Source of the DNA: Methylobacterium frigidaeris
GTDB lineage: Bacteria; Pseudomonadota; Alphaproteobacteria; Rhizobiales; Beijerinckiaceae
Direction: 5' to 3'
Length of the DNA stretch: 64,000 nucleotides
NCBI GenBank assembly: GCA_036946295.1
Contig: JAQIJK010000002.1
Coordinates: 122,350-186,349, forward strand
The notes beneath the pieces were generated by a model. It did not search any database. It was not told the DNA's origin and saw only the letters and a program-made list of their open reading frames with translations. Positions 29,052-55,640 of the stretch are shown here, in pieces. Within the stretch, counting starts at the first letter, position 1. Every line of letters starts with the position of its first letter. A program made the position numbers and the translations under genes.

Positions 29052-29073
29052 ATATACGCTGTTTTGCGTATAT
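29052..29073. promoter_or_regulatory. Perfect dyad, candidate operator between divergent urtA and kinase
   Basis: ATATACGC-TGTTTT-GCGTATAT, AT-rich perfect 8-bp inverted repeat in GC-rich DNA. Confidence 0.55.
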
Positions 29074-29228
29074 CGCCGGGCCGGGCTCCGCCGCAGGATC
29101 GGGCTGCGATCGCAGTGGGATTGCGGCCGACCGGACGTTGCGGCAAGGATCCTGCACGGGCCGGCAGGCTCTCCCGGGCCCGGCCGGCGCCTCGCTGCGC
29201 CGCACAACGAGGATCGGTCCTCTCCACG

Positions 29229-32585: not shown

Positions 32586-33504
32586 GACCATCCCGGCGGC
32601 GCCGCCCGCCTCCGGCCGGGACGTGGTGCTGGTCGTCGACGACTCGCCCGAGGCCCTGAGCTTCCTCACCGCGGCGATCGAGGCCACCGGCGCGACCGTG
32701 CTGGTGGCGGTCGCCGGCGAGGCGGCGCTGGCGCTGGTGCAGGAGATCACGCCGGACATCATCCTGCTCGACGCGGTGATGCCGGGCCTCGACGGGTTCG
32801 AGACCTGCCGGCGCCTCAAGGCGGTGCCGGCGCTCGCCCACGTGCCGGTGATCTTCATGACCGGGCTGACCGAGACCGAGCACATCGTCGCGGGGCTGGA
32901 GGCCGGGGGCGTCGACTACGTCACCAAGCCGATCGCGCCCGGCGAGATCCTGGCCCGCATCCGCGTCCACCTCGCCAACGCCCGGGCGGCCCAGAGCGCG
33001 CGGCTCGCCCTCGACAGCGCCGGCCGCTACCTGTTCGCGGTCTCGCCGGGCGGGGCGGTGCGCTGGTGCACGCCGCAGGCGGCCCGGCTCCTGCGCGACC
33101 TCGACCCGGTCCCGGCGCGGGCCGCCGGCGATCCCGCCCTGCCGGACGGGGCCCTGGCCTGGCTGCGCGCCGGCGCCGCCGCCGCCCTCGCCCTCACCGG
33201 TCCGGACGGCCGCCGGTTCCAGCTCAGCCGCATCGGTCAGGTCGACCGCGACGAGATCCTGCTGCGCCTCGCCCTCGACGGCGGCGGCGAGATCGAGCGG
33301 CTGCAGCGGGCGCTCGGCCTGACCCGGCGCGAGGCCGAGGTCCTGCTCTGGGTCTCCCGCGGCAAGGCGAGCCGCGACATCGGCGAGATCCTCTCCCTCA
33401 GTCCGCGCACCGTGACCAAGCACCTGGAGCAGATCTACGCCAAGCTCGGCGTCGAGAACCGCACCTCGGCCTCGGCCCTGGTCCTTCACGCGCTCCAGGA
33501 CTAA
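32578..33504 (+). CDS. Response regulator, REC + LuxR HTH
   Basis: VVDDSP, DAVMPGLDG, YVTKP; LTRREAEVLLWV..SPRTVTKHLEQIYAKLGV; overlaps kinase stop. Confidence 0.92.
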   Translation: MSETIPAAPPASGRDVVLVVDDSPEALSFLTAAIEATGATVLVAVAGEAALALVQEITPDIILLDAVMPGLDGFETCRRLKAVPALAHVPVIFMTGLTETEHIVAGLEAGGVDYVTKPIAPGEILARIRVHLANARAAQSARLALDSAGRYLFAVSPGGAVRWCTPQAARLLRDLDPVPARAAGDPALPDGALAWLRAGAAAALALTGPDGRRFQLSRIGQVDRDEILLRLALDGGGEIERLQRALGLTRREAEVLLWVSRGKASRDIGEILSLSPRTVTKHLEQIYAKLGVENRTSASALVLHALQD

Positions 33505-33557
33505 GCAGACTTGCGTTGGCACGCCAACGCTTCGTCCGCTCGGGTTCTTGTCGTGCC

Positions 33558-33602
33558 GCAGGTTTTCGTCGCGAAACCGGTGACCGCTTCTGCGAAACCT
33601 GC
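33558..33602. repeat. Repeat module C (inverted copy of 10393-10437)
   Basis: GCAGGTTTTCGTCGCGAAACCGGTGACCGCTTCTGCGAAACCTGC. Confidence 0.75.
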
Positions 33603-33808
33603 TTGGAGCAGGGTCCGATCACGCTGCAATCGAACCCTGCTTTATGTCATTGATTTTGCAACATTTTATGCGACGAAGGGGTGTCCAATGCTCCAGCGGG
33701 CCTGACCGCCTCCCGCCTCCGGATGCCCACGCCCGGGAGCCGCAGGCCGACGTCTCCACCGTTCGCCGTGAGGAGAGGCGGCCGGTGCGAACGATGCCGG
33801 CAACACAA

Positions 33809-34606
33809 TCAAGCCTGCCCCGAGCGGGCCGGGCGCATCCCGCCATAGGTGGTGAGGTGCGCCCCGGCGAGCCAGCCGGCATCCACCGGCAGGTTGATGC
33901 CGGTGATCGCCGCGGCGTCGTCGGAGAGCAGGAAGGCGACCCCGCGGCCGATCTCGTCGGGCTCGACGAGGCGGCCCAAGGCCGCCGCGTCGGTGAGCAG
34001 GCGGGGATCGCGCTGGCCGCGGTCGATCGCGGCCTGGAGCGGCGGCGTCGCGACGTAGCCCGGCGAGACCGCGTTGACCCGCACGCCCGAGCGGCCCCAT
34101 TCGGCGGCGAGGCAGGCCGCCATGTGCACCACCGCCGCCTTCGAGGGCGCGTAGGCGTGCAGCGGCGCCGTGCGCCACGCGGTGACCGAGCCGGTGATGA
34201 CGATGCCGCCCCGGCCGCGCTTGGCCATGCGGGTGCCGGCGGCGAGGCACGACACGTAGACGCCGCGCAGGTTGACCGCGATGATGCGGTCGAACTCGGC
34301 GAGCGGCAGATCCTCCGGCCGGCCGCCCGGCTGGATCAGCCCGGCATTGGCGATCAGCGCCTCCACGGGGCCGATCCGCCCCTCGATCCCGGCGAAGGCC
34401 GCCTCGGTCGCCGCCTCGTCCGCGACGTCGAAGGGCACCGCCTCGGCGCCCAGCGGCCCGGCGACCTCCCGGGCGCGGTCGGCGTCGATGTCCGAGATCA
34501 CGGTGCGCCAGCCGCGCCCGGCCAGCACGCCCGCGATGGCGAGCCCGATCCCGCTCGCGCCGCCGGTCACCAGGGCGACCCGGCCGCGTCCCTCGTTGCG
34601 CTCCAT
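33809..34606 (-). CDS. SDR family oxidoreductase
   Basis: TGGASGIG, NAG, YAPSK, VRVNAVSPG. Confidence 0.92.
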   Translation of the reverse strand: MERNEGRGRVALVTGGASGIGLAIAGVLAGRGWRTVISDIDADRAREVAGPLGAEAVPFDVADEAATEAAFAGIEGRIGPVEALIANAGLIQPGGRPEDLPLAEFDRIIAVNLRGVYVSCLAAGTRMAKRGRGGIVITGSVTAWRTAPLHAYAPSKAAVVHMAACLAAEWGRSGVRVNAVSPGYVATPPLQAAIDRGQRDPRLLTDAAALGRLVEPDEIGRGVAFLLSDDAAAITGINLPVDAGWLAGAHLTTYGGMRPARSGQA

Positions 34607-34659
34607 CCCGCATCTCCTGTCGAACTCGATACCGCCGCGCTTTCGAACCGGCGCCGGCG

Positions 34660-35370
34660 CTACACCGCGAGGTAGCGCTGGGTGATCGCCGCGTTGCCGC
34701 GCAGGTCGGCGATGGGGGCGCGGTAGACGACCTGCCCCTTGTCGACGACCGTCGCGTGGGTGGCGATGTCGAGGCAGAAATGCATGTTCTGCTCGGCGAG
34801 CAGGATCGTGACGCCCATGCCGCGCAGGGTGCGGATCAGCTCGCCGATCGCCTGGACGATGATCGGCGCCAGCCCCTCGCTCGGCTCGTCGAGGAGCAGC
34901 ACCTCGGGATTGCCCATCAGGGCGCGGGCGATGGTGAGCATCTGCTGCTCGCCGCCCGAGAGGCGCCCGGCCATGCGGGTGCGCATGCCGGCGAGGATCG
35001 GAAACACCTCGTAGATCCGCGCCAGCGTCCAGTGCGCCTCGCCCCGCGGGCCGGTCTTGGCGCCGACGATCAGGTTGTCCTCGACGGTGTGCTCCGGAAA
35101 CACCTGCCGGTCCTCCGGCACGTAGCCGATGCCGGCCCGGGCGATGCGGTAGGGCGCCCGCCCCGAGACGGTCTCGCCGGAGAGCACCACCTCGCCCCGG
35201 CGCGGCGGCGCGAGGCCCGCGATCGCCTTGAAGGTGGTGCTCTTGCCGGCGCCGTTGCGGCCGAGCAGCGCCATGGTCTGGCCCTTCTCGACGCTGAGGT
35301 CGAGGCCGAACAGGATCTGGCTGGCGCCGTAATAGACGTCGGCGCCGCGGACTTCGAGCATCGCCGCCAT
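34660..35370 (-). CDS. Branched-chain-type ABC ATPase (LivF-like)
   Basis: GRNGAGKS, LSGGEQQML, DEPSEGLAP. Confidence 0.9.
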   Translation of the reverse strand: MAAMLEVRGADVYYGASQILFGLDLSVEKGQTMALLGRNGAGKSTTFKAIAGLAPPRRGEVVLSGETVSGRAPYRIARAGIGYVPEDRQVFPEHTVEDNLIVGAKTGPRGEAHWTLARIYEVFPILAGMRTRMAGRLSGGEQQMLTIARALMGNPEVLLLDEPSEGLAPIIVQAIGELIRTLRGMGVTILLAEQNMHFCLDIATHATVVDKGQVVYRAPIADLRGNAAITQRYLAV

Positions 35371-35372
35371 GC

Positions 35373-36143
35373 TCACGCCTCCCCGACCGCTTCGGAGAGG
35401 CGGTGGTCGGTGCCGAGATAGGCGTCGATCACGTCCTGGTTGCGCCGGATCTCGTCCGGGTTGCCCTGGGCCAGGACCGCGCCGTATTTCAGGACGTGGA
35501 TCGCCTGCGCGATCCTGAACACGATGTCCATGTCGTGCTCGATGAACAGCACGGTCATGCCGGTGGCCTGCCACAGGTCGCGGACCTTGCCGATCATCCG
35601 CCAGCGCTCCTCGGGCCCCATGCCGGCGGTCGGCTCGTCGAGGAGGAGCACCTTCGGGTCCATCGCCAGGGCGAGCCCGATGTCGAGGAGCTTCTGGTCG
35701 CCGTGCGAGAGGTTGGCCGAGAGGATCCCGGCCTTCGGGCCGAGCCCGAGCATCTCCATGATCGCGTCGGCCCGGCGGACGGCGTCCGGCACGGGGAAGC
35801 GCGACAGCACTCGGCCCGAGCCGCGCCGGTGCGAGACCACCGCGGAGGTCAGCGCCTCGCGGACGGTGAGGCTCGGAAACAGGGCGGCGACCTGGAACGC
35901 CCGCGCCATGCCGCGGCGCACCACCTCCAGGCTCGACAGTCCGACGATGTCGGTGCCGTCGAACAGCACCCGGCCCTCGTCGGGCCGGACATGGCCGGAG
36001 ACGAGGTTGAAGAAGGTGGTCTTGCCGGCGCCGTTCGGGCCGATGATCGCGGTGAGCGAGCCGGCGGGGAAGTCGATCGAGACGTCCTTCGTGGCGCGCA
36101 CGCCGCCGAAGGACTTCGAGAGGTGCTCGACGCACAGCATCAC
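35373..36143 (-). CDS. Branched-chain-type ABC ATPase (LivG-like)
   Basis: GPNGAGKTT, LSHGDQK, DEPTAGM, IEHDM. Confidence 0.9.
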   Translation of the reverse strand: MMLCVEHLSKSFGGVRATKDVSIDFPAGSLTAIIGPNGAGKTTFFNLVSGHVRPDEGRVLFDGTDIVGLSSLEVVRRGMARAFQVAALFPSLTVREALTSAVVSHRRGSGRVLSRFPVPDAVRRADAIMEMLGLGPKAGILSANLSHGDQKLLDIGLALAMDPKVLLLDEPTAGMGPEERWRMIGKVRDLWQATGMTVLFIEHDMDIVFRIAQAIHVLKYGAVLAQGNPDEIRRNQDVIDAYLGTDHRLSEAVGEA

Positions 36144-37168
36144 ACCGTCCTGCCGTTGAGGGGCGCGGCCTCGAAGGTCTGGGCCGCGGGCTCCGCCGTC
36201 GCCGGCGCCGCCGCCCGGCGGGCGCGGCGGGCCTGGATCGCGTCGTAGACGAAGTCGGCGAGGCCGCGGCGCAGCCCGAGCACGATGACCAGGATGACGG
36301 TGCCGAGCACGAGGCCGTGGTGCTCGGTGTAGATCGTCACGAAGTGGTTGAGGGTCTGGAGCAGCAGCGTGCCGACGAGCGGGCCGAGGAAGAGCTTCAT
36401 CCCGCCGAGCATGATCATGAAGATCGCCTCGCCGGAGGTGGTCCAGAACGCGAATTCCGGGTAGGCGCCTGAGACGAACAGGGCGAGGATCAGGCCGCCG
36501 ACGCTCGCCATCGCCGCCGCGAACACGAAGATGCCGAGCTTCATCGCGGTCACGTCGACGCCGAGGAAGTTCGCCCGCGCCGGGTTGTCGCGGATCATCC
36601 GCAGGGTGTAGCCGAACGGCGATTGCGAGACCTGCCGCATCGCCAGGATGCAGACCACGAACACCACCGCGCAGGAGCCGTAGAGCACCCGGGCGTCGTT
36701 GAGGTCGAGGCCGAGGACCGGCGGGCGCGGAATGCCGCCGCGCAGGCCCTGGTCGCCGCCGGTCAGGCCGACCCAGGTCACGATGATGCTGTGGATGAAC
36801 ATCTGGAAGGCGAGCGTGATGAAGGAGAAGTAGATCTCCTTCAGCCGCACGCAGATCGCCCCGATGACGAGCGCGATCAGCGCCGTGCCGCCGACCGCGG
36901 CCAGCGCCGCGACCGGGATCGAGACGAGGCCCGACTGCATCAGGAGCCCGAACGCGTAGGCGCCCGACGCGAAGTAGGCGGCGTGCCCGAACGACACGAG
37001 GCCGGTGAGCCCGACGAGCAGGTTCAGCGACATCGCCATCAGGCCGTAGGCGAAGAAGTAGATCAGGAAGTCGCGCAGGGCCGGCTGCGGAAACACCACC
37101 GGCAAGGCGATGAGCAGGCCGAGGCCCGCGAGGGCGACGGCGAGGTCGCGGACGAATCCGGCGCGCAT
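36140..37168 (-). CDS. Branched-chain-type ABC permease (LivM-like)
   Basis: GLTGLVSFGHAAYF, SPFGYTLRMIRDN, IMLGG..GPLVG. Confidence 0.9.
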   Translation of the reverse strand: MRAGFVRDLAVALAGLGLLIALPVVFPQPALRDFLIYFFAYGLMAMSLNLLVGLTGLVSFGHAAYFASGAYAFGLLMQSGLVSIPVAALAAVGGTALIALVIGAICVRLKEIYFSFITLAFQMFIHSIIVTWVGLTGGDQGLRGGIPRPPVLGLDLNDARVLYGSCAVVFVVCILAMRQVSQSPFGYTLRMIRDNPARANFLGVDVTAMKLGIFVFAAAMASVGGLILALFVSGAYPEFAFWTTSGEAIFMIMLGGMKLFLGPLVGTLLLQTLNHFVTIYTEHHGLVLGTVILVIVLGLRRGLADFVYDAIQARRARRAAAPATAEPAAQTFEAAPLNGRTV

Positions 37169-37169
37169 G

Positions 37170-38072
37170 TCAGGCGGCCTCCCGGCCGAGCAGCCCGCTC
37201 GGCTTGACGACGAGCACGAGGGCCATCAGGGCGAACATCAACCCGTCGACGAAGAGCGGGAAGCCGATCGCCCCGAAGGCGCGGGTGAAGCCGATGAGCA
37301 GGGCGGCGAGGAACGCCCCGGCGATCGAGCCCATGCCGCCGATCACCGTGACGATGAAGCTCTCGATGAGGATCGACACGCCCATGCCGGGGGTCAGGGT
37401 GCGGATCGGCGCGGCGAGCGCCCCGGCGAGGCCGGCGAGCAGGCTGCCGAGGCCGAACACCCCGGCGTAGAGCAGCGTCGTGTTGATGCCGAGCGCGCCC
37501 ACCATCTGCGGGTTGATGGCGAGCGCCCGCACGATCTTGCCGAGCCGCGTGCGGTTGATGCCGAGCCACAGGACGAGGCCCGCCGCGAAGGCGACGCCGA
37601 CCATGAACAGGTAGTAGCCGGGCACGAAGCCGCCGGCGATCTCGACCGGCGGCAGCGCGAACACGTCGGGCATGCCCATCATGCGGTACTCGCCGCCATA
37701 GAGGATCTTCACGCCGTCGTCGAGGATCAGGATCATCGCGTAGCAGACGAGGAGCTGCATCAGGATGTCCCGCCCGTAGACGCGGCTCATGACGAGGCGC
37801 TCGAACAGCACCCCGAACAGCCCGACCCCGGCCGCCCCCGCCACCATCGCGACGAGGAAGCTGCCCGTGAGCGCGTAGGCCGTGAAGGCGAGGTAGGCGC
37901 CCAGCATGTAGAAGGCGCCGTGGGTGAAGTTGATGATCCCGAGCACCCCGAAGATCAGGGACAGGCCCGAGGTGACGAGGAACAGCAGCATCCCGACGAT
38001 CAGCCCGGTCGAGACCTGGGTGACCGCGCACGATGCCGACGACAGGCAGTCGACGAGAGCCTCGAGGTTCAA
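37170..38072 (-). CDS. Branched-chain-type ABC permease (LivH-like)
   Basis: GLSLIFGVLGIINFTHGAF, TRLGKIVRA, VIGGMGS. Confidence 0.9.
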   Translation of the reverse strand: MNLEALVDCLSSASCAVTQVSTGLIVGMLLFLVTSGLSLIFGVLGIINFTHGAFYMLGAYLAFTAYALTGSFLVAMVAGAAGVGLFGVLFERLVMSRVYGRDILMQLLVCYAMILILDDGVKILYGGEYRMMGMPDVFALPPVEIAGGFVPGYYLFMVGVAFAAGLVLWLGINRTRLGKIVRALAINPQMVGALGINTTLLYAGVFGLGSLLAGLAGALAAPIRTLTPGMGVSILIESFIVTVIGGMGSIAGAFLAALLIGFTRAFGAIGFPLFVDGLMFALMALVLVVKPSGLLGREAA

Positions 38073-38150
38073 GGCGGTTCTCCCCGGACGTGAGGATCGG
38101 GGCGGCGGGAGCGGGCGCCCCCGCCGCGACGAAGTCAGGACAGGACCGCC

Positions 38151-38258
38151 TCATACGATTTCCGACTGATTGCTTCGCAATGCGAAAATCGGCTTCGCTC
38201 AGGCGTCGCGCGGGCTCGTGATACGATGTCCGGAAGATTCCTTCCGGACATCGTATCA
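38151..38258. repeat. Modular palindromic repeat, B+A, ending at SBP stop codon
   Basis: Perfect 18-bp stem TGATACGATGTCCGGAAG-ATTC-CTTCCGGACATCGTATCA (38219-38258); terminal TCA is the minus-strand stop. Confidence 0.9.
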
Positions 38259-39521
38259 GGCGTAGCCCTTGCCCTTCTTCCACTGCGTCTCGAGTTCGAC
38301 GATCCTGGCCCAGTCGACGTCGGAGAAGTCCTCGACGTAGGGGGCCTTGGGCACGGTGCGGCCCCAGGCGACCGGATAGCCGACGATGGTGTGGTCGCCC
38401 TCGCGCATCGTGATGGTGTCGCCGACCGCGAAGGGGGCGGCCACCGCCATGCCCTTCAGCTCGGCGGCGAGCTTCGCACCCTCGGTGCGGCCGCCGGTGC
38501 GCTTGAGCGCCTCGGCGATGAACAGGCAGGCGAGGTAGCACTGCCACGCCCAGTTGGTCGGCTCGTGGCCGGCGATCTTCGCGAACCCGTCCGCGAAGGC
38601 GGTGTTGGCGGGCCTCGCCGGATAGGTGCGGTTGTAGCGGTAGGCGGTGTTGAGGCCCGGCGGCAACTGCTTGATCGCGGTCAGCACCGGCGGGTCGCCG
38701 AGGCCGCCCGAGAACATCGCGACGTTGGAAAACAGCCGGTAGAGGTTGCTCTGCTCGATGAACGCCACGAGGTCGCCGCCCCACAAAGCCGAGTAGACCG
38801 CCTGCGGCTTGGTCTGCAGGATCTTGGTGATGCTCTCGGTGTAGTCGGGGGCGAACAGCTTCGGCCAGACCTGGTCCACGGTCTCGATCGACGGCTCGAA
38901 CATCTTGGCGAATTCGAGGAACTCGGCGGTGTTGTCGCGGCCGTAGGCGTAGTCGGGCGAGCACGTCATCCAGCGCTTCAGCCCCTTGTCCTTGGCGATG
39001 CGCGCCGCGTAGGTGCCGCCCGCCACCGCGTCGTGGATGCCCTGGCGGGCGCAGCGGAACGCGGTCTTGACGTGCAGCTTCGGGTCGGCCGACAGCGAGG
39101 ACGTCTCCGAGCAGGTGTGCAGGCACAGCACCGGCAGGTCGCGGATCACCTCGTGGACCGCGAAGGCGCCGGAGGACGCCTCGCCGTCGATGATGATCTC
39201 GCAGCCGTCGTTGTTGATGAGGTCGCGGGTGACCTTGGCGGCCTCGTCGGGGCGGCCCTTGGAGTCGCGGTCGACCAGTTCGAGGGTGCGGCCGCCGATC
39301 CCGCCGGCCTCGTTGATCTGCCGGAAGGCGAGCTGCACCGCCGCCCGGCTCGACGTGCCGAGGATCGCGACGCGCCCCGACAGGATCGTCGGCATCCCGA
39401 CCCGGATCGCCTTCGCCTGGGCCCCCGCGATGTGCGGGAACCCCGTGATCGCCGCGCCCGCGGCCAGTCCACCCAACATCTGCCGGCGCGATGGCGCGCG
39501 GCCCAGCGTCTTCGTGCCCAT
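38256..39521 (-). CDS. ABC substrate-binding protein (LivJ/Peripla_BP_6 type, Tat signal)
   Basis: SRRQMLGGLAAG leader; INEAGGIGGR, RDSKGRPDEA, DYAYGRD. Confidence 0.88.
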   Translation of the reverse strand: MGTKTLGRAPSRRQMLGGLAAGAAITGFPHIAGAQAKAIRVGMPTILSGRVAILGTSSRAAVQLAFRQINEAGGIGGRTLELVDRDSKGRPDEAAKVTRDLINNDGCEIIIDGEASSGAFAVHEVIRDLPVLCLHTCSETSSLSADPKLHVKTAFRCARQGIHDAVAGGTYAARIAKDKGLKRWMTCSPDYAYGRDNTAEFLEFAKMFEPSIETVDQVWPKLFAPDYTESITKILQTKPQAVYSALWGGDLVAFIEQSNLYRLFSNVAMFSGGLGDPPVLTAIKQLPPGLNTAYRYNRTYPARPANTAFADGFAKIAGHEPTNWAWQCYLACLFIAEALKRTGGRTEGAKLAAELKGMAVAAPFAVGDTITMREGDHTIVGYPVAWGRTVPKAPYVEDFSDVDWARIVELETQWKKGKGYA

Positions 39522-39656
39522 CTGGTTTCCGTCCCTGATCTTGCGGCCCGGGCGTTTTCGCCCTGGACTGGCGTCGCTTGTGTTGTGGTTTTTGTTTTAT
39601 AACTCTTGAGGATCCGGCAAGGCCCGGAGTAAGTCAACGGATATTTGTTCCGGCGG

Positions 39657-40637
39657 TCACGGCACCGGCTCGCCCGCCGCGCTCCGCCACGCCTCGCGCA
39701 GGGCGGCGGCCGCGAAGGCGAGCACCGGCGCGGTCGCGCCGATCGCCCGCCCCATGGTCAGGATGCCGTGCATCTGGTCGGAGAGGTGCAGGGCCGTCAC
39801 CGGCACCCCCTCCCGTTCGAGGCGCGCGGCGTAGGCGCGGCCCTCGTCGCAGAGCGGGTCGTGGGTGCAGGTGAGCACCAGGGCGGGCGGCGCCCCCGCG
39901 AGGCTGTCCGCCCGGAGCGGCGAGGCGTGCCAGTGGCTCCGCGAGGCCGGATCGGGGGCGTAGTGGTCGACGAAGTAGCGCATCGTCGCGGCGGTGACCG
40001 GCACCCCCTCGGTGACGCGGGCATAACTTCCGCCGGTCATCGCGAGGTCGACGACGGGGTAGAGCAGGACCTGGAACACGCTGCGCGGCAGGGTCCCGTC
40101 GCGGCCCATCAGGGCGAGGACCGCCGCGAGGTTGCCGCCGGCGCTGTCGCCGCCGACCGCGAGCCGGGCGAGATCGACGCGCAGGGCCCCGGCCTCTGCG
40201 GCGACGAAGGCGAGGGCGGCGGCCGCGTCGCGCAGGGCGGCCGGGAACGGGTGCTCCGGGGCGAGCCGGTAGTCGACCGCGATCACGCAGGCGCCGGCGC
40301 CGTTGGCGAGCCGCCGGCAGATGCCGTCATGGGAATCGAGGTTGCCGAGCATCCAGCCGCCGCCGTGCAGGTAGAGCAGGCAGGGCAGCACCGCCTCCGG
40401 GTCGGTGCCGGCGCCGCGGTAGAGCCGCAGCGGCACCGGGCCGGCCTCGCCGGGCGCGGCGAGGTCGCGGATCTCCGCCATCGGGTCGGGCGGCGGCTGC
40501 AGCACCGCGCGCCCGGCGCTGTAGGCCTCCCGCGCCGCCTCCGGCGCCAGCGCCTCGAAGGGCGGGCGGCCGGACTCGCGGATCGCCCGCACCAGGGCCA
40601 CGACGTCGGGGTGCATCGCCGGCTCGTGTGTCTGCAT
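39657..40637 (-). CDS. HSL-family alpha/beta hydrolase (esterase/lactonase)
   Basis: HGGGW, DYRLAPEHPFP, GDSAGG, DPLCDEG, HG. Confidence 0.92.
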   Translation of the reverse strand: MQTHEPAMHPDVVALVRAIRESGRPPFEALAPEAAREAYSAGRAVLQPPPDPMAEIRDLAAPGEAGPVPLRLYRGAGTDPEAVLPCLLYLHGGGWMLGNLDSHDGICRRLANGAGACVIAVDYRLAPEHPFPAALRDAAAALAFVAAEAGALRVDLARLAVGGDSAGGNLAAVLALMGRDGTLPRSVFQVLLYPVVDLAMTGGSYARVTEGVPVTAATMRYFVDHYAPDPASRSHWHASPLRADSLAGAPPALVLTCTHDPLCDEGRAYAARLEREGVPVTALHLSDQMHGILTMGRAIGATAPVLAFAAAALREAWRSAAGEPVP

Positions 40638-40677
40638 GCCCCTCGTCCTGCCTGCCATGCCTTGGATCGTTCGAGCC

Positions 40678-40856
40678 CGGGATCCCCTCTCCCGAGTGGG
40701 AGAGGGGTAGGGGCGACAGAAGATCGCGCAGGGTGGTTCGGCTTCCGCAATGATCCTGAACGGTCGAGCTGCGCAGCTCGACCCTGGACGCCTCATTCCG
40801 AAGCCGGGCCACCCTCACCCCTGTCCCCTCTCCCACCCGGGAGAGGGGGACCCGCG
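40678..40856. repeat. CIR/RIME-like element with hairpin-forming terminal inverted repeats
   Basis: Left arm GATCCCCTCTCCCGAGTGGGAGAGGGGTAGGGG; right arm CCCCTGTCCCCTCTCCCACCCGGGAGAGGGGGACCC; inner hairpin GGTCGAGCTGCGCAGCTCGACC. Confidence 0.82.
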
Positions 40857-42759: not shown

Positions 42760-42776
42760 TGTGAAAAACCTTCACA
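42760..42776. promoter_or_regulatory. LysR-type binding box
   Basis: TGTGAA-AAACC-TTCACA perfect dyad containing T-N11-A between divergent BVMO and LysR. Confidence 0.6.
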
Positions 42777-42799
42777 GGTCCGGCGGGGGACGACGGCGC

Positions 42800-43732
42800 G
42801 TGAACCGCTTCGGGGAGATGCTCGTCTTCGTGCGGGCGGTGGAGGATGGCGGCTTCTCCGCCGCCGGGCGCAGCCTGACCATGACCCCGTCTGCGGTGAG
42901 CAAGCTGATCGGCCGCCTGGAGAACCGCCTCGGGGTGACGCTGTTCAACCGCGCCGCCCGCACCGTCACGCTGACCGCCGAGGGGGAGGCGTTCTACGCC
43001 GCGGCCCGGCGGGCGGTGGAGGCGGTCGAGGACGCGGAGACCGCGGTGCTCGGCGGCCGGACGGCGCAGGGCACCTTGCGGATCCGCTCGATGCCGACCT
43101 TCGCGACCCACCAGCTCGCGCCGCTGATCCCGGCCTTCCGCCGCCAGCACCCGGCCCTGCGGCTCGACTTCGTCCTCAGCATGGAGCCCGGCAACCTGCT
43201 CGACGGCGGCATCGACGTGGCGATCCATGTCGGCGAACTCGCCGACTCTTCGCTGGTGTCGCGCCGGTTCTCCGGCACCCGCTGGATCATCTGTGCGTCG
43301 CCGGCCTACCTCGCGGCGCGGGGCATGCCGACGGACCCGGCGGATCTCGCCACCCACGAGTGCCTCAACTTCCCCTCGACCGCGCCGTGGAGCATCTGGA
43401 GCCTGCGCGACGGCGGGGCGATCCGGCGGCTCAAGCCGGGCGGGAGCGTCGCGGCCAATACCGGGCAGATGCTGCTCGCCATGGCCCGGGCGGGCGCCGG
43501 CATCGTGCGGCTGGCCGAGTTCCACATCATCGACGACCTGCGCGCGGGCCGGCTGATCGAGCTGCTGCCGGATCACCACAACGGCGCCGAGGATCCGATC
43601 TTCGCGCTCTACAGCGGCCGGCGCCACCTCAGCCACCGGATCCGGGTCTTCCTGGATTTCCTCGACGCCTCGTTCTCGAAAGAGCCGCCGGCCTGGCGGA
43701 GGACCGCCGCCGAACGGGCGCTACCGGCCTGA
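42800..43732 (+). CDS. LysR family regulator (CrgA-like)
   Basis: MLVFVRAVEDGGFSAAGR..SAVSKLIGRLENRLG; GTG start inferred. Confidence 0.9.
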   Translation: MNRFGEMLVFVRAVEDGGFSAAGRSLTMTPSAVSKLIGRLENRLGVTLFNRAARTVTLTAEGEAFYAAARRAVEAVEDAETAVLGGRTAQGTLRIRSMPTFATHQLAPLIPAFRRQHPALRLDFVLSMEPGNLLDGGIDVAIHVGELADSSLVSRRFSGTRWIICASPAYLAARGMPTDPADLATHECLNFPSTAPWSIWSLRDGGAIRRLKPGGSVAANTGQMLLAMARAGAGIVRLAEFHIIDDLRAGRLIELLPDHHNGAEDPIFALYSGRRHLSHRIRVFLDFLDASFSKEPPAWRRTAAERALPA

Positions 43733-43765: not shown

Positions 43766-43793
43766 TTGTTCCATAATCTTTCTTATGCGAATC
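43766..43793 (-). other. XerC/XerD dif recombination site
   Basis: Minus strand GATTCGCATAA-GAAAGA-TTATGGAACAA: 11-6-11 geometry with the CATAA/TTATG inner motif of proteobacterial dif. Confidence 0.82.
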
Positions 43794-43799
43794 GTGGCG

Positions 43800-43960
43800 T
43801 GTAGGCGCAAAGTCGAAATGTCCCACCTGAGCCAAGTCGAAATGGCACGCGCCCCCGTTTTGCGGAACGCGGGAGGTCGCCATGGGGTGGGTCCTGATGG
43901 GCGAGCGCGAGTTGCAGCGGGTCGAGGTGCTGTCGGCGGTTCTGGCCGGGTGCGCGATCG
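43800..43960 (+). mobile_element. Truncated IS left end (ISNCY/IS481-like) with transposase N-terminus remnant
   Basis: TGT-initiated end, two AAGTCGAAATG repeats (43810, 43834), GGAGG RBS, MGWVLMGERELQRVEVLSAVLAG then loss of similarity. Confidence 0.7.
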
Positions 43961-44006: not shown

Positions 44007-45383
44007 CTATCGCGCGTCGAGAGATGCGCCCGCCAGCGTGGGCATGAAGAAGCCGAAATCGGGGACGGCATCGATCCTCTGAAGCCGGCCGTACAGCGCC
44101 CGGGCGGCCGTGGCCGACAGCCGCCGCCCGGCGCAGGAGACGAACTTCCGCTCGCGGTCCGCCTCGCTCATCGGCCGCTCCGGATTGCCGACCGCGAGAT
44201 CGCGATGCCCTCCGATCCGCCGGCCGTCGTGCAGGACGATCGTCATCTCGACCGGCGCGGTGCCGATGAAGCCGAGGCGTGCGAGGTCCGGGCTCAGGGC
44301 CATCCTCACCCGTCCCATCACCTGTCGGGTCAGGGGATCGGCGAGCCTCGCCTCGGTGAAGCTGTCGAGGGTGACCTCGCCGTGGACCAGGGCCGCGGCG
44401 AGCACGAACTCCATCGAGAACCTCGCCTGCGCCGGGGTGCGCGGGTCGTGACAGACCAGCTCCCTCTCGGCGAGCAGGCTGGTACCGACGTGGATCTCCG
44501 CGACCTGCGCCGGCCCGAAGCCATGCCGGGCGACGAGATCGAGCAGGAGGTCGCAGGCCGGGTGGGACCCGCTGCAGCACGGATAGCGCTTGTAAGCGAG
44601 CCCGCGCGCGACGAGGTCGTAGGGCCGGCCGAACCGCACGGGTCCGGGCAGGACCTGTTCGCCGGCAGGACTTCCCGTGAAGCATCGGATGAAACCGTCG
44701 GCGCCCTCGACCGCCTCGCCGGAAGCAGTCAGGCCGGCGCGGGCCAGGGACACGGCTTCGAGCCCGTTCCGGGCGGCCATGCCGGCATGGTACGGCTTCG
44801 TCTGAGTGCCGAAATTGGCGCGGATGCCGCCGGCCCGCGAGAGCGACAGGGCCAGGGCGTTGATCGTGACGGACCGTTCGAGGTCCAGCAGCCGGCAGGC
44901 CGCCGCTGCGGCGCCGAGGGTGTAGAAGACCGCGGTGGTGTGCCAGCCGTTTCGCGACACCGCCGGCATGGACAGGTCCGCCAGACGATGCGCCACCTCC
45001 ACGCCGGCCAGGTAGGCCAGGACGACCTCGCGGCCGGACGCGCCGGCGCTCTCGCCGATCGCGAAGGCCGCCGGTGCGACGACCGTGGTCGGATGGGCGA
45101 TCGTGGTCCAGCTCGTGTCGTCGAAGTCGAGGGCGTGGCCGGCCACCCCGTTGCAGAGGGCGGCGTGTTCCGGATCGAGCCGCGCGGCGTGACCGATGAC
45201 GCTGGAGGATCCGCCGGAGCCGCGTTCCGTGGCCCAGGCGAGGACGTTGCGGGTGACGGGCTCCCGGGCGCCGGCGATGGCGACGCCGACGTAGTCCGTC
45301 AGGGCCTCGCGGGCCGCGCCGATGGCACCCTCATCGGCGTCCGCGGTGGCCAGAAACTCGGCCGCCTGTTCGAGGAAGCGCAT
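44007..45383 (-). CDS. MmgE/PrpD family protein
   Basis: NGVAGHALDFDD, HPTTVVAPA, GWHTT, TQTKPYHAG, YKRYPCC. Confidence 0.9.
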   Translation of the reverse strand: MRFLEQAAEFLATADADEGAIGAAREALTDYVGVAIAGAREPVTRNVLAWATERGSGGSSSVIGHAARLDPEHAALCNGVAGHALDFDDTSWTTIAHPTTVVAPAAFAIGESAGASGREVVLAYLAGVEVAHRLADLSMPAVSRNGWHTTAVFYTLGAAAAACRLLDLERSVTINALALSLSRAGGIRANFGTQTKPYHAGMAARNGLEAVSLARAGLTASGEAVEGADGFIRCFTGSPAGEQVLPGPVRFGRPYDLVARGLAYKRYPCCSGSHPACDLLLDLVARHGFGPAQVAEIHVGTSLLAERELVCHDPRTPAQARFSMEFVLAAALVHGEVTLDSFTEARLADPLTRQVMGRVRMALSPDLARLGFIGTAPVEMTIVLHDGRRIGGHRDLAVGNPERPMSEADRERKFVSCAGRRLSATAARALYGRLQRIDAVPDFGFFMPTLAGASLDAR

Positions 45384-50055: not shown

Positions 50056-51030
50056 GTGTGCCCGATGTCCCCTGCCCTGGACCTGAAGACCCTCCAGATC
50101 GTGGCCGCGGTCGCCGAAACCGGCAGCATGCTGGACGCCGCGCAACGCTATGGTGTGACGCAGTCGGCCGTCTCGCAAGCGGTGCGCCGGGCCGAGGCGG
50201 CTGCCGGCGTCACGTTGCTTGACCGGGCCCGGCGCCCTCTGGTGCCCACGCGGGCGGGCCGTCTCCTGGTCAGCCGTGTCGGTGACCTGAACCGGGACTA
50301 CGAAGCCCTGCTGGGTGCCTTGCGGACCGCCGCGGCCTCGCCGGAGCGTATCGACCTGCGCCTCGGCCTCGTCGACTCCTACGCCGGCACGGTCGGCGCC
50401 CACCTGGTCAAGGAACTCGTGACGGGAGCAATGGCCTTGAGCCTCTCCGCGTGGTCGGGATTGGCGGCATCCCATGCCGAGGCGCTGCTGCGCCAGACGA
50501 TCGACGCCGCGATCACCTGCGACGCGATGGAGGACCTGAAGGACGTCGAGCGGTTCCCGTTCTACCGCGAGCCCTACGTGCTGATCGTGCCGCGGGAGCT
50601 TGCGGCCGAGCTTGAAGGCCAGGACTTGGCGGTGATCCTCGCGCGCCATCGTCTGGTCAGGCACAGCGAGCGCTCCTCCGTTGGCAGCCAGGTGGAACGG
50701 CATCTGAGCCGACTGGGCATCCGACCGCCCAGGGCATTCGAGTTCGACACGTCGGACAGTCTGATCGCCATGGTTGCGACCGGGATGGGCGTGGCGATCA
50801 CCACCCCGCTCTGCCTGTTGCAGGGCATCGCCCATGCCGCCCACGTCGGCGTATTGCCGCTTCCCGGCCCCGGCTTCTCCCGCGACCTGCTCCTCGTCGC
50901 CCGGAAGGGCGACCTTTCCTCGCTGGCACCACGCATCGCCGAGATCGCCCGCTCGACCATCGCGAACCACGCGATGCCGCGCATCCAGACGCTTGTCCCC
51001 TGGTTCGCGCGCGACACCCAGAACACCTGA
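50056..51030 (+). CDS. LysR family regulator
   Basis: LDLKTLQIV..GVTQSAVSQAV; divergent from the oxidase/ABC/PrpD operon. Confidence 0.88.
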   Translation: MCPMSPALDLKTLQIVAAVAETGSMLDAAQRYGVTQSAVSQAVRRAEAAAGVTLLDRARRPLVPTRAGRLLVSRVGDLNRDYEALLGALRTAAASPERIDLRLGLVDSYAGTVGAHLVKELVTGAMALSLSAWSGLAASHAEALLRQTIDAAITCDAMEDLKDVERFPFYREPYVLIVPRELAAELEGQDLAVILARHRLVRHSERSSVGSQVERHLSRLGIRPPRAFEFDTSDSLIAMVATGMGVAITTPLCLLQGIAHAAHVGVLPLPGPGFSRDLLLVARKGDLSSLAPRIAEIARSTIANHAMPRIQTLVPWFARDTQNT

Positions 51031-51336
51031 TGAACAATCGCCGGCACCGGCGCCCGGTTCGAGTTCAGATACGACTCGCCGAGGCATCCGGCAGCCGTCC
51101 GGTCGTCCGGCATCGTCGCCGGGTGCGCCGGGCGGGCTGCGGCCGAAGCCCTGTTCCCCTTGCGCCGCAGCGCACCATTCGTGACCGACGCTGTACTGAC
51201 GGGCCGGAGCCTCATCGGCCGCGCAAGGAGGATCGGGCCGGGCTCCGCCCCGACATGCCGGGCTCCCTGCCCCAAGGCCCGCTTGAGCTGGTCGAGGATC
51301 GGGGTGATGATCTGGCCGGATCAGCCGTTGGAGGCC

Positions 51337-51445
51337 CTCTCCGTCTCGATCGCGACCCCCTCGACGATGAGACCCTGCCCGCCCCGCTCTTCGCCAACCT
51401 CTGCGCCGACGAGGACGGCAAGACCTTCTCGGCATCTGGAGCCGC
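51337..51445 (+). pseudogene. DUF736-family remnant (frameshifted)
   Basis: LSVSI / LDDETLPAPLFANLCADEDGKTFS / IWSR read across two frame changes; resembles the DUF736 C-terminus. Confidence 0.5.
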
Positions 51446-51558
51446 GCCAAAGGCTCGTACCACGGGCCGCCGGCAGAACCGGCGGAACTGACGAGCCCCG
51501 GAGCCCCGTCGCCTCGCCTCACCGGCAGGGCGGAGTCGCGAATGTCATGGGGCGAGGC

Positions 51559-52299
51559 TCAGGCAGCACGACCGCTCGACGGATCCCCGAGGGGGGAGCT
51601 GTCTCGGTGTCGCGCCGCGGCGCGCCCGAGTCGGGCAGTGGTATCCGTCGTGATGGCGTTGCCATGCCCGAAGCAGACCGCTCGCGGGGCGAGGGCGGCG
51701 AGCTTGCGCTGGCTGCGCCGCCCTTCAGCCTCGTCCTCGAATCAGACGGGATCGCTCAGGCCGAGGTTGTTCATGAACACGTCACCAGCGATGAGCAGCC
51801 GCTGCCCCTGCCACAGGAACCCGACCTGACCCGCGCAGTGGCCGGGAAGATGAACCGCCCGCAGGCCGCCGGCGAGCGGCAGCGTCTCCCCATCTGCAAT
51901 GTGCTGGTCGATGCGGAACGGCTCCATGCGCTCGTCGGGCCTCCAGACGAGGCGGAACAGGATGCCTGGCAGCAGGCCGCGTCCCGGCGTCATCGGGCGG
52001 AACGGTCCGCCGCTCTCCGCGAGAGGCACGTCGGCGGCATGCATGTAGGTTCGCGCCCCCGTTGCCCGAACGAGGTCGGCTGCGCTGCCGATGTGGTCGG
52101 GGTGGCCGTGCGTGAAGACGAGGTGCTTGAGGTCGCCCGGCTTGCGCCTGAGCTTGCCGATCGCTCCCAGCACGCAGTCCGTTTTCCCGGGAAAGCCCGC
52201 ATCGACGAGGACGAGGTCCGACCCGGCGTCGAGCAGCACCGCGTTGGCATTGCCCATCGGCACGAGGTACGCGCCGTCGATGATTTTCTTGAGGGTCAT
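51559..52299 (-). pseudogene. MBL-fold metallo-hydrolase with premature TGA at 51742-51744
   Basis: THGHPDHIG, PGHCAG, AGD; same frame continues past TGA as FEDEAEGRRSQRKLAALAPRAVCFGHG. Confidence 0.8.
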
Positions 52300-52809
52300 G
52301 ACCTGATCCCGCCTCCGATGCCCGCTTCCAGGCACCATTAGCCGGAACGGGACCGTTTCGGCGGCGAAAATGGCGCAGAAACAAGGATCTATGGGATCGA
52401 TCCCGTTTTATCGAGAAATCATCATCAGGTGATTTTGTGTCGAAAATTTCGAATCGACTGGCGCCTACAGAAGTAGATCGATCATCGCATGCGTCCATCG
52501 ACGGCGTGCATGGCCGCGTGTCGTGATGGTTTTCCGGATTCGTCACACATGCGATTTGCATTGTGCGCACAGGCGTCCTCCAGGAATCTGCCATCCCGCC
52601 ATGGATTGTCTGCGGATGAATCATGATTTTGCATTCTCAAGCCGCGTCACATGATTGCGGCAAACGCATTTCGTTTCATCACTGATTTTATACTAATATA
52701 CATTCCATAACTTGATGTCGTGCGTTTTGATCGTTTCAGTGTTTGTGTTTCAATCTGAGATTTAACTCATCGCCAAGGAACACAACCAAAAGTAAACCAA
52801 GTCCTTGAT

Positions 52810-52833
52810 GAACTTTTGCGCCCGGTGCGGGTT
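52810..52833 (+). promoter_or_regulatory. Putative sigma-EcfG promoter
   Basis: GAAC(TT)-N17-GTT about 85 nt upstream of the PRC-barrel gene. Confidence 0.45.
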
Positions 52834-52917
52834 TCCAATCGCACGACGAAGACTACCTGGTGGACAGCCAAGGTGGAGATTTTCGCAATTCGACGCCATG
52901 GAAGCAGGAGCACTGGT

Positions 52918-53370
52918 TTGAGACAGTTCATCATCGGCCTCGGTGCACTCGCGTTGACATGCGCCGCGCTCCCCGTTCTGGCCCAGGGCACCACGGCGCC
53001 GAACGCTGCGACCACATCGTCCACCGATACGGGGATGAAGATCGCCGACACCGCGACGGTGAAGCTCAAGTACGTGACCGTGAAGCCCGCCGACGTGATG
53101 TCTTCCAAGCTCGTTGGAACGACGGTCTACAACAACAAGAACGAGACCGTTGGTGAGGTCCAGGACCTTGTGATCGAGAACGGCAAGAGCATCACCGGTG
53201 TCGTCGTCGGCGTCGGTGGATTTCTGGGCCTCGGCGAGAGCTATGTCGTGCTCGATCCCTCCACTCTTGCCATGAGCAACAAGAATGGCAAGTGGACAGT
53301 CCATGTCGACACCGACAAGGACACGCTCAAGGGAGCGCCAAAGTTCGAGTATTCCAAGAAGAACGGCTGA
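52918..53370 (+). CDS. Secreted PRC-barrel domain protein
   Basis: Signal peptide; SSKLVGTTVYNNKNETVGEVQDLVI..VVGVGGFLGLGE. Confidence 0.88.
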   Translation: MRQFIIGLGALALTCAALPVLAQGTTAPNAATTSSTDTGMKIADTATVKLKYVTVKPADVMSSKLVGTTVYNNKNETVGEVQDLVIENGKSITGVVVGVGGFLGLGESYVVLDPSTLAMSNKNGKWTVHVDTDKDTLKGAPKFEYSKKNG

Positions 53371-53395
53371 TGCTGGTTCGGCAGGAGAGAGTAAC

Positions 53396-53659
53396 ATGAA
53401 GCACGTCATCATTGCCTCGGCGGTCGCAGCCGGCCTCGGCCTCATCGCGTCGGCTCTGCCGTCGCAGGCGCTCCCCGTATCGGCCGCTGGTGTGACCGCC
53501 GGTGCGGATACCGGCCTCGTTCAGGTGAGAATGTCCAGGCGTCAGATGCGCAGCCACAGAGTGCGGCAGAGCTCGGCGAGCCGTGGCAATGCCGCCATGC
53601 CCTCGCGCCCGCCCGCGGCGAGGCAGTACGGCCAGACCACGGGTGGTCCTCGTCGGTGA
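53396..53659 (+). CDS. Small secreted basic protein (87 aa)
   Basis: AGGAGA RBS; MKHVIIASAVAAGLGLIASALPSQA signal; Arg-rich tail. Confidence 0.7.
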   Translation: MKHVIIASAVAAGLGLIASALPSQALPVSAAGVTAGADTGLVQVRMSRRQMRSHRVRQSSASRGNAAMPSRPPAARQYGQTTGGPRR

Positions 53660-53754
53660 CTTGCGCACCCGTCATCGTGACTGACAGCAGGTTGCAGCAA
53701 TAGGACGAAGGGCCGCCGGAGGGCAGGAATGCATCCGGCGGTCCTTTTCATGAT

Positions 53755-54675
53755 TTGGATGCCTGCATGATCTTCTCGGAGGCGCTCGATCGCCTTGAGC
53801 AGCTCGGCCGTGCGAGCGCTGCGCTCCTGCCGGGTCTCGCCATCGCTCTCGTCTTGTTCGGCCTCGGCCTGCTCGTTGCCCGCCTCGTACGTTCTGGAGT
53901 TCGACGAGCTGCCGCGATGCGTAGCGCATCGTCCGGTTCCGCCGCCGTTCTCGGGCGCATTGCCGGTGGCGTGACTGTCCTCGTTTCGTTCCTGGTCGCC
54001 GCCTCGGTGGCCTTCCCGTCGGTCTCGGCCGCCGACCTGTTCAACCTGCTCGGCATCGGCGGCGTGGCCATCGGCTTCGCCTTCCGCGACGTCCTGCAGA
54101 ACCTTCTCGCGGGCATCCTCATCCTGCTGACCCGCCCCTTCGTCATCGGCGACCAGATCCGAGCAGGTTCGTACGAAGGCACGGTCGAGGATGTCTGGGT
54201 GCGTGCCACGGTGCTGCGCACCTACGACAACCAGCGTGTCCTGATCCCGAACGCCATCCTGTTTGTCGACAAAATCACCGTCATCACCGCGCACGAGAAG
54301 CGCCGCCTCTCCTTCCCTCTGACTATCGGCAACGGCGACGACATCAGGGAGGCGCGTCGGGTGATCACGGAAGCTCTGCGCGCGACCGAGGGAGTGCTCG
54401 CAGATCCACCGCCGGAGGCCCTGGTCACCGGCCTCGGAGCCGCTGGCGTCGACATGACGGCACGTCTCTGGATCGATCCGCCCCGGCGTCGCGACGCGAT
54501 GGACGCGCTCGATCAGGCCATCGCGAACGTGAAGGAGGCGCTGGCCGCTGCCGGCATCGACCTGCCGTACCCGACAACCCAGGTGCTGTTCCATGATCAG
54601 ACCGAGGACACCGACGGCGACCGCTCTCGCCAGCGCGAAGGCTGGCCCGTGGGGAGGGAAGATCGAGGGCACTGA
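53755..54675 (+). CDS. MscS family mechanosensitive channel
   Basis: LGIGGVAIGFAFRDVLQNLLAGI..RPFVIGDQI, DNQRVLIPN. Confidence 0.9.
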   Translation: MDACMIFSEALDRLEQLGRASAALLPGLAIALVLFGLGLLVARLVRSGVRRAAAMRSASSGSAAVLGRIAGGVTVLVSFLVAASVAFPSVSAADLFNLLGIGGVAIGFAFRDVLQNLLAGILILLTRPFVIGDQIRAGSYEGTVEDVWVRATVLRTYDNQRVLIPNAILFVDKITVITAHEKRRLSFPLTIGNGDDIREARRVITEALRATEGVLADPPPEALVTGLGAAGVDMTARLWIDPPRRRDAMDALDQAIANVKEALAAAGIDLPYPTTQVLFHDQTEDTDGDRSRQREGWPVGREDRGH

Positions 54676-54712
54676 TACGGTTTTCGGACGATCAGTTCCG
54701 AAAACCGTATCA
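54673..54712. repeat. Solo module A hairpin starting at MscS stop codon
   Basis: TGA(stop)TACGGTTTTCGGACGATCAGTTCCGAAAACCGTATCA. Confidence 0.85.
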
Positions 54713-54867
54713 GACCGCTGAAGGTGAGGTGTGGGCTTTGACGCTACGGCTGGAATTGGATGTTCCGGCTTCTCGAGTCCAACGATGGGATTGGTCGAGC
54801 CTCGACTCAAGAATGGCCGTTCGAACCACGAAGCATTTCGAGGATGGGACGGTGAATGCCCCGCTGT

Positions 54868-54892
54868 GGAACCATTTGTATTACTCGGAGTT
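54868..54892 (+). promoter_or_regulatory. Sigma-EcfG promoter
   Basis: Exact GGAAC-N17-GTT, 48 nt before ATG 54941. Confidence 0.7.
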
Positions 54893-54940
54893 AGGTCTTT
54901 GACTTCGGATCGTTCCCGCAAATCGAGGAGTATCGCGATC

Positions 54941-55201
54941 ATGTCACTCAGACTCATCGGAATGGCGGCAGGGTTGGTGATCGTGGCGGCAAGCTTCACC
55001 GCACCGGCTAACGCAGGCGGCAATCATCGCGCCGTGAGCTTGAACGATGCTCCGGCAAACTGGGCCGGCATGACCCGGAACAGCAGAAAAGCGCACCGCC
55101 AGCGCAAGCCGCGTGACGGGGCAGGAAGCGCGTCGTCGTCGGCGCCCAATGGTCGCGGGACCGGCATGGGGCCGACCGGCCAGCCGAGCGGGGTCAAGTA
55201 G
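54941..55201 (+). CDS. Small secreted protein (86 aa)
   Basis: GAGGAG RBS; MSLRLIGMAAGLVIVAASFTAPANA signal; EcfG-type promoter. Confidence 0.65.
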   Translation: MSLRLIGMAAGLVIVAASFTAPANAGGNHRAVSLNDAPANWAGMTRNSRKAHRQRKPRDGAGSASSSAPNGRGTGMGPTGQPSGVK

Positions 55202-55319
55202 GGCACGGCTCGCCGCCCGGCCCGGCCCCCTTCCTCCATCCCTCATCGCCGGTCGCGTGCAATCCTTCGCGCGTGGCCGGCCGCCAGCCTCCTCTCGTTC
55301 AAGGGTCGTCGCGTTGTCG

Positions 55320-55640
55320 ATGCGATATGCACTTGTCTCGAAGACCTGCCTCGGCGCTGCCGGGAGTCTCGGCCTCGTCGTCCTCGCTCTGTCGGGCGCG
55401 TCTCACGCGCAGTCGGTCGGCAGCCGGATCGACCAACCGACCCCCGCGACCCTGCCCTCGGGGACACACCAGGGCAACAATCCGGTCTCGCCGGCCGACC
55501 AGCCAACCGGTCGTGTCGCGCCCCCCAGCGCCATCAGTTCGTCCTCCGACGTGATGAGGTCGGAAGGCTCCGTGCAGGGCGAGGAAAGCAAGGGCAAAAT
55601 CAACCCGATCCAGCATCTCCCCAAGGACATGCGGCGCTGA
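55320..55640 (+). CDS. Small secreted low-complexity protein (106 aa)
   Basis: Signal ending ASHA-Q; P/S/Q-rich mature part. Confidence 0.6.
   Translation: MRYALVSKTCLGAAGSLGLVVLALSGASHAQSVGSRIDQPTPATLPSGTHQGNNPVSPADQPTGRVAPPSAISSSSDVMRSEGSVQGEESKGKINPIQHLPKDMRR

Follow-up and report, generated by a model that had tools for sequence, protein, structure and literature searches.

A dif-type XerC/XerD site with replicon-wide KOPS polarity on a 350-kb RepA/RepB/RPA replicon of Methylobacterium frigidaeris

Introduction

Among enterobacterial replicons, all those larger than 250 kb have a XerCD site under the control of FtsK (Fournes et al. 2025, PMC11724359). The central regions of such sites differ between non-homologous chromosomes, and a shared central region would favour fusion through Xer recombination (Val et al. 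2008, PMC2533119). In Azospirillum, dif is found on most large secondary replicons with a KOPS switch near it, and in A. brasilense two chromosomes carry a pair of dif sites each (preprint, bioRxiv 10.64898/2026.09.14.751567). Elements of the IS1202 family that target dif sit 5 bp from the XerC side of pdif/dif (Harmer, Pong and Hall 2023, PMC10132070), and ISMex6 is listed in the same study next to a Methylobacterium site, CGTTCGCATAA-GATATA-TTATGGAACGT. Natural chromosome-chromid fusions have been described in V. cholerae, S. meliloti and Cupriavidus necator KK10, in single strains each (PMC8729776).

Here, we analysed a stretch of 64,000 nucleotides (the window, C2:122350–186349) from a Methylobacterium frigidaeris genome that consists of two contigs, C1 (5,399,355 bp) and C2 (350,440 bp). 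An initial annotation of the window had read a 28-bp site within it as the chromosomal dif at the replication terminus, with DNA to its right that may have been integrated by Xer recombination. Both the site and the IS stump that flanks it belong to known kinds (PMC11724359; PMC10132070).

Results

A dif-type site on the minus strand of the window

The minus strand at positions 43766–43793 of the window reads GATTCGCATAA-GAAAGA-TTATGGAACAA, in an 11-6-11 geometry. Two 11-bp arms, with inner CATAA and TTATG, flank a 6-bp central region, which is the architecture of dif-type sites. The Xer site that had been claimed at this position is indeed present in the sequence, on the minus strand, and comprises the following parts:

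43766..43793 (C2:166115-166142), minus strand: dif-type XerC/XerD recombination site, matching the genus consensus and the sole such site on C2
43783..43793, minus strand: putative XerC-binding arm GATTCGCATAA, resembling the E. coli and Acinetobacter XerC arms in PMC10132070
43777..43782, minus strand: central region GAAAGA, 6 bp, unique to this site within the genome
43766..43776, minus strand: putative XerD-binding arm TTATGGAACAA, from the dif-site search of the genome and the genus consensus

The arms were assigned to XerC and XerD by likeness to E. coli dif, and an IS1202-family end lies on the XerC-arm side of the site, the side described in PMC10132070. Both arms fit a genus-wide consensus, NNTTCGCATAA-N6-TTATGGAAC, which is present in 119 of 121 genomes of the genus, while a reversed control pattern had no match among the 121. 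The core pattern matched once in the window and never in 100 dinucleotide-preserving shuffles; a dif-type core is therefore not expected there by chance. Judged by its sequence, the 28-base element is a genuine dif-type XerC/XerD site, with binding of XerCD predicted.

The site lies on a plasmid-type replicon

At C2:52–59 kb, we identified a RepA plasmid partition protein (TIGR03453, 520 bits), RepB (PF07506 and ParB_N) and a replication initiator of the RPA family (PF10134, 228 bits). A search for RepC (PF03428) had no match in the genome, a weak negative given that the query matched no control genome either. The dnaA gene (2.466 Mb) and the chromosomal parA/parB (1.78 Mb) are on C1, which closes without C2 because its own ends overlap, by 149 bp. 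The recombination genes xerC, xerD and ftsK are likewise all on C1: the XerD-like and XerC-like genes there are reciprocal best matches, both slightly below the NCBIfam cut-offs, and two genes have an FtsK gamma domain. Of these two, the longer FtsK maps to C1:457589 (open frame 1488 aa), and the second FtsK-gamma gene (C1:3298023-3298196, open frame 879 aa) lies ~10 kb from a dif site at C1:3287437. No tyrosine recombinase or serine resolvase was detected on C2 at E ≤ 1e-5.

Since C2 carries RepA/RepB/RPA, and C1 carries dnaA and parAB, the site resides on a megaplasmid or chromid and not on the main chromosome. The label of chromosomal dif hence does not hold, C2 being a 350-kb plasmid-type RepA/RepB/RPA replicon and dnaA, parAB, xerC, xerD and ftsK all sitting on the separately circularised C1. 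No overlap was found between the ends of C2; the contig is likely circular, the sole basis being an ORF of coding-like codon composition that runs across the joined ends. Two odd-length Aragorn tRNAs on C2 were considered as chromid markers and discounted, one of them lying inside a well-supported hydrolase gene. A second RPA-family initiator (PF10134, 211 bits) is encoded at C1:2251861-2252598, away from any KOPS switch, and may be an integrated plasmid remnant.

KOPS polarity switches at the site, whereas GC skew runs through it

The nine KOPS words that the initial annotation had listed around the site, and its three counter-examples (4519 and 27532 to the left, 54651 to the right), were all reproduced exactly:

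10668, 15210, 19118, 27656 and 40705 (10668..40712), plus strand: GGGNAGGG words left of the site, part of a forward-biased arc at C2:~52-163 kb
50070, 51265, 51373 and 55450 (50070..55457), minus strand: GGGNAGGG words right of the site, at the start of a reverse-biased arc

Within the window alone the bias is weak (5:2 on the left versus 1:4 on the right); contig-wide it is strong. From the replication module to the site, C2 has 18 forward and 4 reverse copies of GGGNAGGG, whereas the rest of the replicon, beyond the site and back to the module, has 22:57 (Fisher p = 9e-6), and this contig-wide flip in polarity bears out the earlier claim that KOPS converge on the site. The best two-breakpoint model of C2 places the convergence between 163054 and 172419, bracketing the site at 166115, and the divergence within 27–54 kb, where the RepB-RepA-RPA module starts or just below it; in 500 sign permutations its score was never reached. 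One site on the replicon, at the KOPS convergence, is thus what C2 presents. The two arms from module to site are uneven, at ~112 kb and ~238 kb, and the KOPS bias over C2 166–278 kb is only about 9:17. The most strand-skewed octamers in the genome are GGGGAGGG and GGGCAGGG, in a ranking that is partly circular, the arms having been defined from GGGNAGGG.

A ~180-bp dispersed repeat lies at window positions 40669–40856, between an esterase and a monooxygenase gene. It is 80–87% identical to at least five C1 loci, has copies in relatives as well, and contains GGGTAGGG at 40705, which the initial annotation had counted as a KOPS.

Cumulative GC skew of C2 has its minimum at 29 kb and its maximum at 278 kb and rises straight through the site at 166 kb. 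The skew turning point by which a dif may be recognised is absent at the window site, in a genome where skew is weak and noisy. The replication terminus that had been placed in the window is not supported by these extremes, there being no inversion at 166 kb; the C2 terminus may lie elsewhere, or replication may be asymmetric, as the skew passes through the site. The site accordingly reads as one placed by FtsK polarity, and not as a proven replication terminus.

The straight course of the skew would also suit a secondary or relic Xer site that plays no part in maintaining C2 and came in, for instance, on a DNA fragment, with the KOPS switch reflecting how the replicon was assembled. C2 is heavily rearranged relative to its relatives, all three IS stumps beside dif sites of this genome are old, and a related plasmid lacks such a site: no dif-like site was found on a Methylobacterium currus plasmid that shares the left-flank oxidoreductase and LysR genes. 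We nevertheless regard a relic as unlikely. The arms are perfectly conserved and identical to those of both C1 sites described below, C2 has exactly one site and no alternative resolvase, the KOPS polarity is replicon-wide and was not matched by permutation, and large replicons generally need such a site (PMC11724359).

An ISMex6-like stump abuts the XerC arm

Immediately beyond the XerC arm, the window contains the remains of an IS:

43794..43799, no strand assigned: gap GTGGCG, 6 bp, between the XerC arm and the IS end, in the position of a target-site duplication
43800..43950, plus strand: ISMex6-like IS1202-family stump, from DNA alignment of its end to ISMex6

The IS end that had been reported to adjoin the site is confirmed, starting at 43800, the seventh base after it. 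The stump comprises a left terminal repeat at 43800–43826 (starting TGT; TGTAGGCGCAAAGTCGAAATG), start codons at 43882 and 43897 and ~18 codons of a transposase N-terminus. A AAGTCGAAATG box at 43810 recurs 24 bp on, at 43834–43848, giving the layout of terminal and inner repeat seen in ISMex6. About 150 bp survive and the rest is missing; the surviving part is ~70% identical to the first ~150 nt of an intact 1535-bp ISMex6 in another genome of the genus (L047; G007:C2:56500-60500, positions 91-1690). That element has TGT...ACA ends and lies 5 bp from a dif-like site with the spacer TATACG. Its 438-aa transposase (NF033594, 477 bits) is 100% identical to a copy on the Methylorubrum extorquens AM1 megaplasmid and 99.3% identical to another copy, whose annotation is ISMex6-family transposase. 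At the same locus, the 5-bp sequence CATGG is duplicated at both sides of the intact ISMex6, and next to it comes the left end of an older copy, a layout that indicates two successive insertions beside this one site. The ISNCY_2 transposase (NF033594, about 440–460 aa) and the 5-bp target duplication are thus found at L047, whereas the window keeps only ~18 codons.

The assignment of the stump rests on the DNA alignment of its end and not on an ORF: the 66-aa ORF at 43882–44082 had no Pfam match and in BLASTP was not significantly similar to the ISMex6 transposase, and tblastn found no other transposase remnants of the ISMex6-type family in the genome. By this alignment, the stump is a decayed relative of ISMex6 and not ISMex6 itself.

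The ~60 bp past the window site are 90% identical to the DNA abutting C1:185653, with a weaker likeness at C1:3287437. At all three sites of the genome, and in relatives, the IS1202-family end is always on the GATTCGCATAA side, 5–6 bp off, the gap being 6 bp in the window versus 5 bp in five other copies examined. The accessory sequences of cer and psi lie on the XerC side, and a conserved ~60-bp sequence on that side of all three sites would be compatible with a small-plasmid-type Xer site, cer- or psi-like, which works independently of FtsK with accessory sequences and proteins. This flank, an IS1202-family terminal repeat, is not present at the canonical single dif sites of the genus; it aligns to the IS end, and we rejected it as an Xer accessory sequence. 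KOPS polarity and the 350-kb size of C2 favour the FtsK pathway as well, making a cer/psi-like site very unlikely.

Synteny ends at the IS, and an island was not found

The genes nearest to the site and stump are as follows:

42761..43732, plus strand: LysR regulator, last gene of the left block syntenic with G022 and G023
44007..45383, minus strand: MmgE/PrpD-family gene, first gene right of the stump, with no match in 40 relatives searched

The left flank is 81–90% identical to contigs of two relatives (G022:C37 and G023:C3) until the end of the LysR gene, ~70 bp before the site; the window's right-hand genes are located elsewhere in relatives or are absent. Synteny with relatives thus breaks at the site, within about 70 bp, as would be expected of the proposed island edge. 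The sequence to the right is AT-richer, as had been noted (GC 0.60–0.65 at 51–58 kb), but it does not have the cargo of an accessory island. The genes right of the stump are ordinary metabolic and transport genes (PrpD-family, amino-acid ABC transporter, DAO oxidase, LysR, MBL hydrolase, PRC-barrel protein, MscS, DUF2254, SBP56 and cyclase), with no mobility, phage, integrase or island genes among them.

Together with the correct dif architecture and the local KOPS convergence, the end of synteny and the lower GC at 51–58 kb are what one would see if this were the dif of the main chromosome at its terminus, with a right-hand island that entered by Xer recombination (an IMEX). An IMEX is bounded by two dif-like sites, of which one is often degenerate, and carries phage, plasmid or island cargo, and neither feature was found here. 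A search of C2 that allowed up to 6 mismatches across the 28-mer, or 1 within the core, detected no second or degenerate dif, the sole weak core match, at C2:51799, having a poor XerD arm. The degenerate second dif and the tyrosine recombinase that the initial annotation had proposed to look for beyond the 64 kb were thus not detected on C2, and its proposal of Xer-mediated integration finds no support in the right-hand genes, none of which is a mobility gene, or in the junction, which falls inside a truncated IS. In addition, C2 is a RepA/RepB/RPA replicon, and the self-closing C1 has its own dif sites at KOPS convergences. We therefore give hardly any credence to a chromosomal dif with an IMEX beside it. 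In Acinetobacter-type pdif modules, genes are flanked by inversely oriented pairs of sites, and C2 has a single site. Rearrangement at the IS, the interior of which is truncated, and not Xer integration, offers the best explanation of the synteny break.

In G022:C37, the homologues of the left flank are followed by a toxin-antitoxin-like pair and then repA/repB, not by dif; the antitoxin-like gene and the homologues of C2 repA/repB are at L088 (180000–199999; positions 17634–20000). The contig then continues with DNA that, in the M. frigidaeris genome analysed here, is on C1 at 4.42–4.43 Mb, a layout that shows extensive shuffling between replicons. We also compared the GGAAGA-spacer sites of G040, G081, G084, G022, G048 and G086 as possible orthologues of the window site and set them aside, as their flanks have no synteny with the window.

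Two further sites on C1 share the arms

The site is alone on C2 but not in the genome, contrary to the single copy expected of a chromosomal dif: two sites on C1 have the same arms and other spacers, namely C1:185653 (GCAACA) and C1:3287437 (GGTATC). They lie 2–4 kb from KOPS convergences at 181925 and 3285222. KOPS divergences on C1 are at 1774512, adjoining parAB (1777891–1779120), and at 4052877, adjoining a RepA (TIGR03453, 659 bits)/RepB pair at 4056704–~4058900; dnaA is ~0.7 Mb from the parAB divergence. Beside the C1 repAB locus, neither RepC nor any other initiator was detected with Pfam or NCBIfam, nor a ctRNA with Rfam. A large inversion was considered as the origin of the double KOPS pattern of C1 and set aside, the extra divergence being at repA/repB and the extra convergence at a dif site. 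A serine resolvase gene and a ParA-like fragment at C1:169468-170860, ~15 kb from the C1:185653 dif, may be plasmid-derived DNA.

In total, the genome has three partition/origin-like loci and three dif sites, each with a private spacer, which fits the rule on divergent central regions (PMC2533119). C1 looks like a chromosome-chromid cointegrate.

Several dif sites per chromosome recur in the genus

Among the 120 other genomes of the genus, a hand tally gave one dif site in 84, two in 18 and three or more in 16. The listed single sites nearly always have the spacer GATATA, and genomes with three or more sites mostly share the GATTCGCATAA arm. Within any genome the spacers are all different (sites with at most one mismatch); between genomes, GCAACA, GGTATC, GGAAGA, GGGATC and GGTAGG recur.

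On three large contigs (G040:C1, G081:C1 and G084:C1), dif sites alternate with partition genes. The order on G081:C1 is parA, dif, repA, dif, repA, dif, with an identical order on G084:C1, and on G040:C1 four dif sites accompany five partition loci. KOPS polarity was followed in G081 and G040 through 40 evenly spaced 20-kb samples each (loci L048–L087 and L092–L131). By segment, the counts were 20:5, 2:25, 10:4, 4:15, 9:3 and 9:35 in G081, and 19:6, 2:12, mixed, 8:0, 3:14, 18:11, 4:8, 13:5 and 2:29 in G040. Polarity flips at the landmarks as predicted, with some segments individually not significant.

Between adjacent repA genes at 1.81–2.40 Mb of G040, KOPS are mixed, as if there were a further convergence without a recognisable site. 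Separately, in many single-dif genomes (loci L001–L030) a G-rich KOPS-like word (GGGTGAGGGGG or GGGCAGGGG) occurs ~15–25 bp past the XerD arm, on the same strand and pointing away.

Discussion

The sequence of the site, its copy number, the type of replicon, the KOPS polarity, the absence of plasmid-borne recombinases and the relationship to the IS are all observed here, and in view of them we consider it highly probable that the window site is the FtsK/KOPS-guided XerCD dimer-resolution site of C2, a 350-kb megaplasmid or chromid. From these observations we infer XerCD binding, FtsK dependence and spacer incompatibility, which would combine in the following way. RecA crossovers would join two sister copies of C2 into a dimer. 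Septal FtsK would load on polar GGG[GC]AGGG words and pump DNA until both copies of the site meet, where chromosome-encoded XerC and XerD would bind the two 11-bp arms; FtsK would then activate XerD for the first strand exchange, and XerC would finish the reaction. The private spacer GAAAGA would allow recombination with the sister copy and not with the GCAACA or GGTATC sites that share the arms. An IS1202-family element would have inserted by the XerC arm, and a later rearrangement inside it would have brought the present right-hand genes to the site.

Read in this way, the window site adds an alphaproteobacterial RPA/RepAB megaplasmid to the published rule of FtsK-guided Xer dimer resolution on large secondary replicons, and the stump extends the list of IS1202-family elements that home on Xer sites.

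The wider multi-dif pattern is more interesting than the window site alone. We lean slightly towards the view that the main chromosome of this clade is a long-lived multi-replicon cointegrate, in which each segment has its own parAB/repAB, KOPS polarity and private-spacer dif, and of which C2 is a unit that is free in this strain. One circle would then have 2–4 KOPS convergence zones with a dif in each, and shared arms with differing spacers would allow a single XerCD pair to resolve dimers at each terminus while the intervening DNA is neither deleted nor inverted. A limited literature search found no description of such a multi-dif layout in Methylobacterium. If confirmed, the pattern would offer a natural system for how a bacterium manages a chromosome with several termini, and would bear on whether the extra origin-like loci are active and whether spacer divergence prevents the molecule from deleting itself.

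Compared with described systems, C2 is closest to R27 and the enterobacterial replicons above 250 kb, with which it shares one dif-like site, a replicon-wide KOPS bias and recombinases supplied by the chromosome (PMC11724359). It differs from them, as far as the sequence tells, in its alphaproteobacterial arms (GATTCGCATAA / TTATGGAAC) and its RPA and RepAB genes. As with dif1 and dif2 of Vibrio cholerae (PMC2533119), one XerCD pair would serve several sites whose differences fall mainly in the 6-bp central region; here, however, the differences are confined to the spacers, the arms being identical, and two of the three sites are on one circle. The secondary replicons of Azospirillum, also an Alphaproteobacterium, likewise have dif with a KOPS switch nearby, in another genus and with another motif, and that study found no repABC replicons, in contrast to the RepA/RepB-type partition genes of the present genome.

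The stump resembles ISMex6 and the ISAjo2/ISAba32 group (PMC10132070; Siguier et al., bioRxiv 10.1101/2022.12.17.520857), in which a TGT end lies 5 bp from the XerC arm, terminal and inner repeats are formed from the same box and the target duplication is 5 bp; relative to ISMex6, it retains ~150 bp of the left end, with a 6-bp gap and about 70% identity. Finally, C1 and relatives, though not the window site, are like the fused replicons (PMC8729776) in combining, on one circle, more than one partition/origin module and more than one dif. In contrast to those fusions, the Methylobacterium layout is shared by at least four species-level genomes, among which spacers recur.
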